Shown here: piece after piece, positions 7,965-9,390 of the stretch | Layout of the letters: every line of letters begins with the position of its first letter | Position numbering within the stretch: position 1 is the first letter of the stretch | DNA from: Escherichia coli | Lineage (GTDB): Bacteria > Pseudomonadota > Gammaproteobacteria > Enterobacterales > Enterobacteriaceae | Strand: one strand, 5' to 3' | Assembly (NCBI RefSeq): GCF_003334315.1 | Contig: NZ_QOWR01000077.1 | Length of the DNA: 14,750 bases | Made by a program: the position numbers and the translations under genes | Notes under the pieces: generated by a model | Databases searched by the model: none | Told to the model about the DNA's origin: nothing | Seen by the model: the letters and a program-made list of their open reading frames with translations, nothing else

Positions 7965-8159
7965 CTATTTGTTAGTGAATAAAAGGTTGCCTGTAAAATT
8001 ACAAAAACCTTACGCAGCGTCAAGCGGAATCGTGTCAATCATTGCGACAAATCAATCCTGTGCCTAAGCATTACGCGACTGACTCGCCTCACTCTTCCTT
8101 TGGGCTTGAAACCACATGGGGTCGGCGCCCCGAATTTTAAAGGGCAATTACGATAAAAA

Positions 8160-8175
8160 TGTGATTTTCATCACG
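8160..8175. promoter_or_regulatory. CRP-like binding site in the gapA / msrB divergent intergenic region
   Basis: TGTGA-TTTTCA-TCACG at 8160-8175 matches the CRP core consensus TGTGA-N6-TCACA at 9 of 10 positions. It lies ~215 bp upstream of the gapA ATG and ~120 bp upstream of the msrB ATG. Confidence 0.4.
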
Positions 8176-8242
8176 ATTTAGGTGCAGCCATTTCGTCGAG
8201 ATCAAGTTTAGGACAAAATTTTGCCAGTTGGTGTTAATGTTT

Positions 8243-8748: not shown

Positions 8749-9021
8749 ATGAATCTTGATGACATTATCAACAGCATGACGCCTGAGGTATACCAGCGTT
8801 TGTCGACCGCCGTTGAACTGGGGAAATGGCCCGATGGCGTTGCGTTGACCGAGGAACAAAAAGAGAACTGCCTGCAACTGGTGATGCTGTGGCAAGCCCG
8901 CCATAATACCGAAGCACAGCATATGACAATTGACACAAATGGTCAGATGGTCATGAAGAGCAAACAGCAGTTAAAAGAAGATTTTGGTATCTCAGCAAAG
9001 CCTATTGCCATGTTTAAGTAA
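8749..9021 (+). CDS. yeaC: YeaC, DUF1315 family small protein
   Basis: ORF track gives 105 aa from 8704. I place the start at ATG 8749 (MNLDDIINSMTPEVYQRL..., 90 aa) with SD CAGGAG at 8733-8738. It lies 41 bp downstream of msrB on the same strand. Confidence 0.9.
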   Translation: MNLDDIINSMTPEVYQRLSTAVELGKWPDGVALTEEQKENCLQLVMLWQARHNTEAQHMTIDTNGQMVMKSKQQLKEDFGISAKPIAMFK

Positions 9022-9027
9022 GTGGTT

Positions 9028-9060
9028 TATCCCCTTTTTGCCGCGGTTATAAAGGGGATA
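9028..9060. other. Perfect 10-bp hairpin directly after the yeaC stop, with no U-tract
   Basis: TATCCCCTTT (9028-9037) pairs with AAAGGGGATA (9051-9060) around a 13-nt loop that contains the palindrome CCGCGG. Neither strand has a following T-run. Confidence 0.45.
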
Positions 9061-9255
9061 GCCAACAATGACCCCACGACTCATCTCAATTATCTCGCCA
9101 TGACCTGGCTAAGTCCCAGTCCGATCTCTTGCCGTCGCGTTCACGCCTGAATGACTTCTCCTGAACTTAAGTCTCAGACCTATTTGGCCGGTAATCCCTC
9201 TCGAATTTGCTCTTTTTGCGTTCCGCCTTCCACCAACCTGTAACAGACCCAGCCA

Positions 9256-9315
9256 TTTTCTGCGTAATTGTGATCTAAGTTGTAAAACGCAGATCATTAT
9301 CTGTGTTTTGCAGAT
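9256..9315. promoter_or_regulatory. Cluster of overlapping dyad symmetries (TCTGYR / YRCAGA half-sites) upstream of ydjL; candidate operator or activator site
   Basis: Half-sites TCTGCG (9260-9265, plus), CGCAGA (9288-9293), TCTGTG (9301-9306) and TGCAGA (9309-9314). They include the 26-bp near-palindrome AAAACGCAGAT-CATT-ATCTGTGTTTT (9284-9309) with 10 of 11 arm matches. The cluster sits just upstream of a TTGACC hexamer at 9322-9327. Confidence 0.3.
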
Positions 9316-9321
9316 TTAATG

Positions 9322-9350
9322 TTGACCTCAAAAATCATGTGGGTAAGTAT
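9322..9350 (+). promoter_or_regulatory. Candidate sigma70 promoter for the ydjL operon (good -35, weak -10)
   Basis: TTGACC at 9322-9327, a 17-bp spacer, then AAGTAT at 9345-9350 (3 of 6 to TATAAT). The ydjL ATG is at 9391 with SD AGAGGA at 9377-9382. The weak -10 would fit an activator-dependent promoter. Confidence 0.25.
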
Positions 9351-9390
9351 GATGGCCATCTAAGCAAAACAAAACACAGAGGATGACGCA

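Follow-up and report, generated by a model that had tools for sequence, protein, structure and literature searches.

A conserved, helically phased array of predicted YdjF operators at the ydjLKJIHG promoter of Escherichia coli

The DNA analyzed here, a stretch of 14,750 nucleotides referred to below as the window, is an Escherichia coli chromosome segment carrying yeaH, yeaG, mipA, yeaE, yeaD, gapA, msrB, yeaC, ydjL, ydjK, ydjJ, ydjI and ydjH. The element under study lies in the 369-bp spacer between yeaC and ydjL, where a row of short dyads precedes and overlaps the ydjLKJIHG operon's promoter. The spacer is 100% identical in the window and in strain CP53, and the annotation of the identical CP53 locus places ydjL, the first gene of the operon, which encodes a zinc-binding dehydrogenase, at 9391–10467 on the plus strand. 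The gene for a DeoR-family protein, ydjF, follows directly after ydjG, ~6.5 kb downstream and beyond the window; it is the regulator gene that a preliminary description of this DNA had placed near the cluster. The ydjL promoter and 5' region are present in 4331 of 5426 complete E. coli genomes (~80%), and since the other 1095 lack a match, the cluster is accessory in this species. In one genome (NZ_AP027818.1), the match is limited to the first 113 nt of the promoter and 5' region query.

The conserved unit of the control region is a 17-bp dyad, ATCTGTG-N3-CACAGAT, which is described here without strand. The comparison drew on 58 loci encoding YdjL relatives, including 25 Enterobacterales from Escherichia, Citrobacter, Klebsiella, Raoultella, Yokenella, Intestinirhabdus, Budvicia, Symbiopectobacterium, Enterobacillus, one Serratia species and one metagenome-assembled genome, for which the 150 nt 5' of ydjL were aligned. 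The dyad was recovered independently of this group: Gibbs sampling of 14 non-enterobacterial ydjL upstream regions, with no enterobacterial input, returned ATCTkTG-N3-CAmAGAa, and the dyad emerged de novo for Firmicutes, Atopobiaceae and Megamonas; k-mer enrichment in the Firmicute upstream regions had given A-rich words only, and Gibbs sampling was used instead. A position weight matrix built from the non-enterobacterial sites alone ranks 9299–9315 first of 14,734 window positions and 9698–9714, within the ydjL reading frame, second; when the extended CP53 locus is scanned, first rank goes to a site upstream of ydjF, and no dyad was found upstream of ydjE. The top window match, termed O1 (9299–9315, ATCTGTG-TTT-TGCAGAT), scores 15.5 and 16.6 bits with two matrices trained on Firmicute/Actinobacterial sites only. 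When the training sites that overlap -35 hexamers were removed, the ranking of O1 and of the intragenic site, termed Oi, was unchanged, and the positions 9278, 9319 and 9258 took ranks 11, 17 and 21. Furthermore, in all 25 enterobacterial loci, which extend to as much as 17 kb, O1 and Oi both rank between first and fourth. In the reverse test, 16 foreign loci were scanned with a matrix from enterobacterial sites, and in seven of them the best or second-best match fell upstream of ydjL (best match in L024, L025, L029, L036, L037, L039 and L040). The motif block of K-12 differs from the window at two positions, with TGATCTGAG and TTTTACAGAT in K-12 where the window has TGATCTAAG and TTTTGCAGAT, and the right part of O1 reads TTT-TACAGAT in K-12. 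In Serratia and Enterobacillus, O1 is a perfect palindrome, AAATCTGTGTTTCACAGATTT.

Three weaker dyads accompany O1 at the promoter. O2 (9278–9294, AGTTGTA-AAA-CGCAGAT; 7.4 bits, rank 11 of 14,734) is present at -104 to -107 in 23 of the 25 Enterobacterales and ranks 3–20 in 22 of these. O3 (9258–9274, TTCTGCG-TAA-TTGTGAT; 5.1 bits, rank 21 of 14,734) is Escherichia-specific, with its left half kept in three Escherichia species only. O0 (9319–9335, ATGTTGA-CCT-CAAAAAT; 5.8 bits, rank 17) covers the -35 hexamer and part of the promoter spacer and is the least certain of the predicted sites; the TTGA of the -35 resembles a half-site. In Klebsiella and C. amalonaticus, O0 ends in CAAAGAT and scores 8–10.5 bits, and in Budvicia it reaches 14.2 bits; the spacer bases 9329–9335 are conserved (0.81), which is not a sigma-70 requirement. 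The centers of the four promoter sites at 9266, 9286, 9307 and 9327 are spaced by 20, 21 and 20 bp, which puts all of them on the same helix face. In 3000 simulations, no run of four sites with 20–22 bp spacing and scores of 5 bits or more arose. The same phasing is found elsewhere, with three sites 20 and 21 bp apart in Atopobiaceae (L037), two sites 20 bp apart in a Eubacteriaceae genome (L024) and two sites 21 bp apart in Megamonas (L040).

These dyads account for the four half-sites that the preliminary description had reported, all of which are found where it had placed them: TCTGCG (9259–9264) is the left half of O3, CGCAGA (9288–9293) is the right half of O2, and TCTGTG (9300–9305) and TGCAGA (9309–9314) are the two halves of O1. 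A fifth element, CACAGA at 9375, falls within the ribosome-binding region of ydjL. Over the 14,750 bp, TCTGYR/YRCAGA has 35 matches, and the position 9259 opens the only place in the window with four of them in 56 bp; first-order Markov simulations produce such a cluster in 0.5% of cases for the window and in 0.01% for the intergenic region, figures that are optimistic because the pattern was defined post hoc from the same sequence. The 26-bp near-palindrome described earlier at 9284–9309 (AAAACGCAGATCATTATCTGTGTTTT) likewise exists, but it is in the wrong register and is not a conserved unit, as it joins the right half of O2 to the left half of O1. Its central four nucleotides (9295–9298) are the least conserved stretch of the block (0.66). 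As a binding unit, the 26-mer was rejected: the O2 arm is missing in three outgroup genera (Serratia, Enterobacillus and Symbiopectobacterium), and the N3-spaced 17-mer occurs alone at ydjF, within ydjL and in Firmicutes.

The promoter itself matches its earlier reading as a good -35 with a poor -10. The -35 hexamer TTGACC (9322–9327, plus strand; 5/6) begins 6 bp after the end of O1 and is followed, across a 17-bp spacer, by the -10 hexamer AAGTAT (9345–9350, plus strand; 3/6), which predicts a proximal start near 9357–9358. A generic promoter scan skips this pair because it demands 4/6 per hexamer. Across the 25 Enterobacterales, both hexamers are fixed in position, with TTGAC invariant in the -35 (mean 0.96) and AA.TAT, including the key A2 and T6, held at 0.92 in the -10; a proximal promoter with the same operator spacing is also found in Lachnospiraceae. 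Conservation begins sharply at ~9265 (TATTTGTGATCT) and continues to the ydjL start codon, and there is no alignment upstream of this point, where the adjoining gene varies: E. coli has yeaC, and Klebsiella and Citrobacter have a divergent gene for a ChiD-like chitinase. The conserved elements further comprise TTGTGATCT (0.97) and two dyads (0.86–0.99). The conservation of the motif across Enterobacteriaceae, proposed earlier as a check, thus holds for two of the 17-bp dyads but not for the distal half-site 9259–9264, which is kept only in Escherichia and lies outside the block (mean majority frequency 0.42 versus 0.86–0.99 for the other elements). Taken as a whole, the array argues for a multi-site operator at the ydjL operon promoter, as had been suggested.

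A candidate CRP site (9266–9287, no strand assigned), with the core TGTGA-TCTAAG-TTGTA at 9269–9284, is the best match to the CRP consensus in the 369-bp spacer (7/10 in the core, 13/22 overall). The only TGTGA/TCACA of the spacer is located here, at 9269 (TGTGATCT), and the left half with its flank is perfect (TTTGTGATCT). TGTGA.C is invariant in the 25 species and always lies 53 nt before the -35. The center of the candidate, 9276.5, would lie at -80.5 to -82.5 for a start at 9357–9359, near -82.5 among the class I positions compared (-61.5, -71.5, -82.5 and -92.5). Published data support CRP activation: CRP is reported to bind a ydjL promoter fragment in an electrophoretic mobility shift assay, and expression of the operon to depend on crp, with RNA-seq of a crp-null strain summarized as 'ydjLKJIHG - Crp activation' (PMC8085971). 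The invariant TGTGATCT half-site at ~-81 is thus likely the CRP site. O2 overlaps it by 7 bp, so that YdjF and CRP should compete if both sites are used as predicted. Two GATC (Dam) sites, 9272–9275 and 9293–9296, lie in this CRP/O2 part of the array and are kept in most Enterobacteriaceae (in TGTGATCT and CAGATCA); they may be incidental, as GATC belongs to the CRP consensus.

Oi (9698–9714, TTCTGTG-TTG-TACAGAA, TTCTGTGTTGTACAGAA; 15.4 bits, the second-best match of the window) lies inside ydjL and spans the codons F-L-C-C-T-E. The six-codon window over it has the lowest third-position entropy of 353 ydjL windows (0.19 versus a mean of 1.03): third codon positions across Oi are nearly frozen in the 25 Enterobacterales, whereas Gln, Gly, Val, Asn and Leu codons on either side show free variation. 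ACA and TGT are not known to be favored codons in E. coli, and as both are among the frozen codons, codon bias is an unlikely cause of the constraint. Firmicute ydjL genes encode the same peptide with other codons, and the site is absent from them. The centers of O1 and Oi are 399 bp apart, which is 38.0 turns at 10.5 bp per turn and places Oi at ~+350; as geometry, this distance is compatible with a DNA loop.

The candidate binder of the dyads is encoded by the cluster. The gene order ydjL-K-J-I-H-G-F is syntenic in Enterobacterales, Lachnospiraceae, Eubacteriaceae, Ruminococcus, Anaerococcus, Megamonas and Atopobiaceae, and the syntenic clusters carry a ydjF homolog with 43–56% identity. ydjF is syntenic in 35 of 40 ydjL-carrying loci; four of the other five end at a contig edge before the ydjF position, and one (L028) has only ydjK-ydjL-ydjI. 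YdjL is 77–85% identical between Enterobacterales and gut Firmicutes and Actinobacteria (L023–L046) with the same gene order, a pattern indicative of recent horizontal spread of the entire cluster between gut bacteria. YdjF, of the DeoR/GlpR family, whose members combine an N-terminal helix-turn-helix with a C-terminal sugar-phosphate-binding domain, is the sole transcription factor common to these clusters and the only regulator that travels with the motif across phyla. Its helix-turn-helix is better conserved than its effector domain, and the most diverged helix-turn-helix (33%) is found in Anaerococcus, at a locus without a convincing motif. From this co-occurrence, we infer that YdjF, which is listed as an uncharacterized transcription factor of E. 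coli K-12 (PMC4797297, PMC6055005), most likely binds the dyads.

The spacer between ydjG and ydjF is also strongly conserved and carries ATCTGTGATTCAGACAT (ATCTGTGATTCAAACAG in E. coli), a dyad separated by 6 bp from a downstream TTGAAA -35, just as O1 is from TTGACC at ydjL. Its position suggests that ydjF is autoregulated. The same spacer (15727–15738 and 15831–15842 of locus L001) contains a pair of complementary arms, CACCTCTGTTTC just past the ydjG stop codon and GAAACAGAGGTG (GATACAGGGGTG in E. coli), the latter of which spans the Shine-Dalgarno sequence of ydjF; almost all Enterobacterales keep both arms. Since the 5' arm is upstream of the putative ydjF promoter, only read-through RNA from the operon would contain it, and the pair may act as an insulator of translation, in parallel with what is predicted at ydjL.

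Our comparison supports, with fair though not full confidence, a model in which a phased array of operators together with Oi mediates repression of ydjLKJIHG by YdjF, with co-activation by CRP. The row of dyads, with a strong O1 and weak O2, O0 and O3, spans ~-100 to -23 of a weak sigma-70 promoter, TTGACC-17-AAGTAT, which would drive a sugar-acid catabolic operon. When no inducer is present, YdjF oligomers would fill the array cooperatively and possibly loop to Oi, and the filled array would cover the -35 and the CRP site and prevent expression of the operon. YdjF would be released by an intermediate of the pathway, probably a sugar acid phosphorylated by the YdjH kinase, upon which CRP-cAMP would activate the weak promoter. 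As YdjH products, phosphorylated heptulosonate and octulosonate sugar acids have reportedly been put forward by the Raushel laboratory. Repression is favored over activation because orthologous sites lie over the -35 and the -10/+1 and because an intragenic site is present in Enterobacterales: the third site in Atopobiaceae (L037) covers the -35, and the two sites in Megamonas (L040) lie on the -10/+1 and at +21 of a promoter with 11/12 matches. The activator dependence that had been proposed from the weak -10 is plausible through CRP, given that this -10 is conserved as such and that CRP binding and CRP-dependent expression are reported (PMC8085971), but the dyads themselves are unlikely to be the activator sites.

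Several points weigh against repression by YdjF and have to be set beside the two other protein-based explanations. The core promoter overlap in E. coli involves only the weak O0, which could be a by-product of the likeness between TTGA and a half-site, while the strong O1 (~-58 to -42) stops upstream of the -35 with a constant 6-bp gap in PydjL and PydjF alike (7 bp in Lachnospiraceae and Clostridiaceae), a geometry that would also suit an activator; the right half of the CRP candidate, TTGTA, is poor; the only start used for ydjL in the literature lies 477 nt upstream of the gene; the E. coli motif scans covered the 14.75-kb window and the extended CP53 locus; and the literature searched yielded no YdjF operator and no result for YdjF from chromatin immunoprecipitation, systematic evolution of ligands by exponential enrichment or other binding assays. 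Within the same family, FucR, the DeoR-family regulator of the fuc regulon, is an activator, and YdjF could by analogy be an inducer-dependent activator bound at O1 (center ~-50) that recruits RNA polymerase to a promoter with a weak -10. The constant gap, the conservation of the -10 as a weak hexamer, the presence of the FucR activator model among the family matches of YdjF and a promoter silent without its signal, as at the fuc promoter without its sugar, all speak for this alternative. We nevertheless consider it unlikely, if still the most serious competitor, as the orthologous sites over the -35 (L037) and at the -10/+1 and +21 (L040) are unfit for an obligate activator, the constrained intragenic site at +350 would have no evident use, CRP already explains the activator dependence, and most DeoR-family members are repressors. 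The behavior of the ydjL promoter fragment, which is inactive in culture but switched on in the mouse gut (PMC6561318), fits a repressor and an activator alike. By comparison, it is very improbable that the sites belong to another regulator, such as Fur, a LacI/GalR-type protein or a CRP partner similar to CytR, or that they are palindromes arising by chance in AT-rich DNA of a promoter. GATCATTATC at 9292–9301 does resemble half a Fur box, and TGTGATCT may belong to CRP alone, but a full Fur box (19-bp, GATAATGATAATCATTATC-like) was rejected with a best match of 13/19 whose center, 9295–9298, falls in the least conserved bases of the block; the motif, moreover, travels with ydjF into phyla without CRP and CytR, and chance is excluded by the conservation and the simulations.

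An explanation at the RNA level must be considered as well, because the ydjL leader may be long. The '5' UTR + ORF' (5' untranslated region plus open reading frame) fusion of Adams et al. (PMC7815308) begins at window position 8914, inside yeaC, where the gene-specific part of their primer JW10231 matches 8914–8934 exactly, giving a leader of 8914–9390 on the plus strand; a -10 sequence, CATAAT, precedes this point at 8902–8907, also inside yeaC. The whole operator array thus lies within the transcript that starts at 8914 (in LB), an arrangement that the preliminary description had regarded as contrary to an operator. We do not take it so, because the proximal -35 and -10 are conserved across genera and even phyla. 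Rho-dependent termination was found on this ydjL leader and open reading frame, with a Rho region at K-12 coordinate 1861188 (PMC7815308), which is window position 9535, 144 nt into ydjL; read-through from yeaC into ydjL thus appears to be stopped by Rho. In such a transcript, the palindromes could act as RNA, with either a hairpin or pairing to the ydjL ribosome-binding site blocking translation and thereby permitting Rho termination. In support, the hairpin at 9276–9318 has a folding energy of -18.3 kcal/mol (z = -4.5), a terminator scan flags 9280–9313, and the minimum free energy fold of 8914–9430 pairs 9300–9310 with 9370–9380 and 9260–9265 with 9386–9393 at probabilities of 0.8–0.99; these pairings join O1's left half to the Shine-Dalgarno region of ydjL, and TCTGCGT to ACGCA beside the start codon. 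Against it, neither the hairpin nor the ribosome-binding-site pairing shows covariation beyond that of shuffles in the 25 species; the hairpin stem has four G-C pairs of 15 and its tail is ATTTAATGTT, not a run of U; Serratia, Enterobacillus and Symbiopectobacterium have lost the O2 arm, and O1 is a perfect DNA palindrome in the first two; and the dyad is found by itself at ydjF, within the ydjL gene and in other phyla. An intrinsic terminator or attenuator was rejected on the same composition and covariation, and an Rfam scan of 8950–9500 gave no match at E <= 1. RNA as the primary role of the palindromes is accordingly improbable; a minor, possibly additional effect in E. coli only could coexist with the DNA role, and the leader pairing, if real, would silence translation of read-through transcripts.

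The closest analog of the ydjL control region, as repressed by YdjF, is that of glpFK in E. coli. There, GlpR, a DeoR-family protein, represses at four adjacent promoter operators, and expression depends strongly on CRP-cAMP (PMC2753651). Both systems combine a catabolic operon, CRP, a DeoR-family repressor (predicted in the case of ydj) and operator units of ~20 bp in helical phase. The glp operons, according to work from the Larson laboratory, reportedly also use operators within structural genes. The differences lie in the operators and the regulator. While the glp operator consensus is built around TTCG/CGAA, the ydj operator is ATCTGTG-N3-CACAGAT, and the ydj promoter array, predicted from sequence, comprises one strong and three weak sites. 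YdjF gives full-length matches to the GlpR, AgaR, SrlR, FucR and DeoR models, the best NCBIfam matches being GlpR and AgaR, and it is not a GlpR ortholog, because every match falls below the curated equivalog cut-offs; nor is YdjF orthologous to any other characterized member of the family. With regard to Oi, the arrangement of a palindromic primary operator near the promoter and a distant auxiliary one resembles the deo operon, in which DeoR acts at O1, O2 and OE with looping, and the lac O1/O2 pair, in which O2 is located ~400 bp downstream of O1 within lacZ; the corresponding distance in ydj is 399 bp. In contrast to these systems, a loop at ydj is suggested by site geometry, and Oi is read from sequence constraint and not from function.

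Beyond the single promoter, the cluster may carry a self-contained control cassette that has moved between phyla together with its enzymes and comprises the YdjF repressor, the phased array, an in-phase Oi for looping and an autoregulated ydjF, with the E. coli half-sites serving also as anti-Shine-Dalgarno sequences. We regard this wider proposal as speculative and rather unlikely in its full form. If true, transcripts that enter ydjL from yeaC, or ydjF from ydjG, would be translationally silenced and terminated by Rho, and translation would proceed only from transcripts of YdjF-controlled promoters.

The design of the array is ordinary for a sugar operon and leaves the general view of such operons unchanged; the new part is the predicted DNA target of YdjF, which we found described nowhere in the literature searched. 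In a memory-circuit screen, the ydjL promoter and one other responded most consistently to the healthy mouse gut (PMC6561318), and the predicted operator makes YdjF and the inducer of this gut-responsive cluster directly testable. A 17-bp probe with purified YdjF would permit an in vitro screen for inducers by ligand-dependent release, and a defined operator would allow rational redesign of a ydjL gut biosensor. In addition, the conservation across phyla supplies a test set for the recognition rules of DeoR-family proteins.

Other features of the region were also observed. The first 230 bp of the yeaC–ydjL spacer (9022–9248) are without counterpart in Klebsiella and Citrobacter; in these genera, yeaC and ydjL are separated by genes for a ChiD-like chitinase and a YajD-like HNH protein. 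This part of the spacer contains a perfect 10-bp inverted repeat directly after yeaC (9028–9037 and 9051–9060), without a T tract, and a 16-nt direct repeat with copies at 9110 and 9168. In the gapA–msrB spacer, AAATGTGATTTTCATCACGATT (8157–8178) is the best match to the CRP consensus in the entire window, with 9/10 in the core and 17/22 overall.

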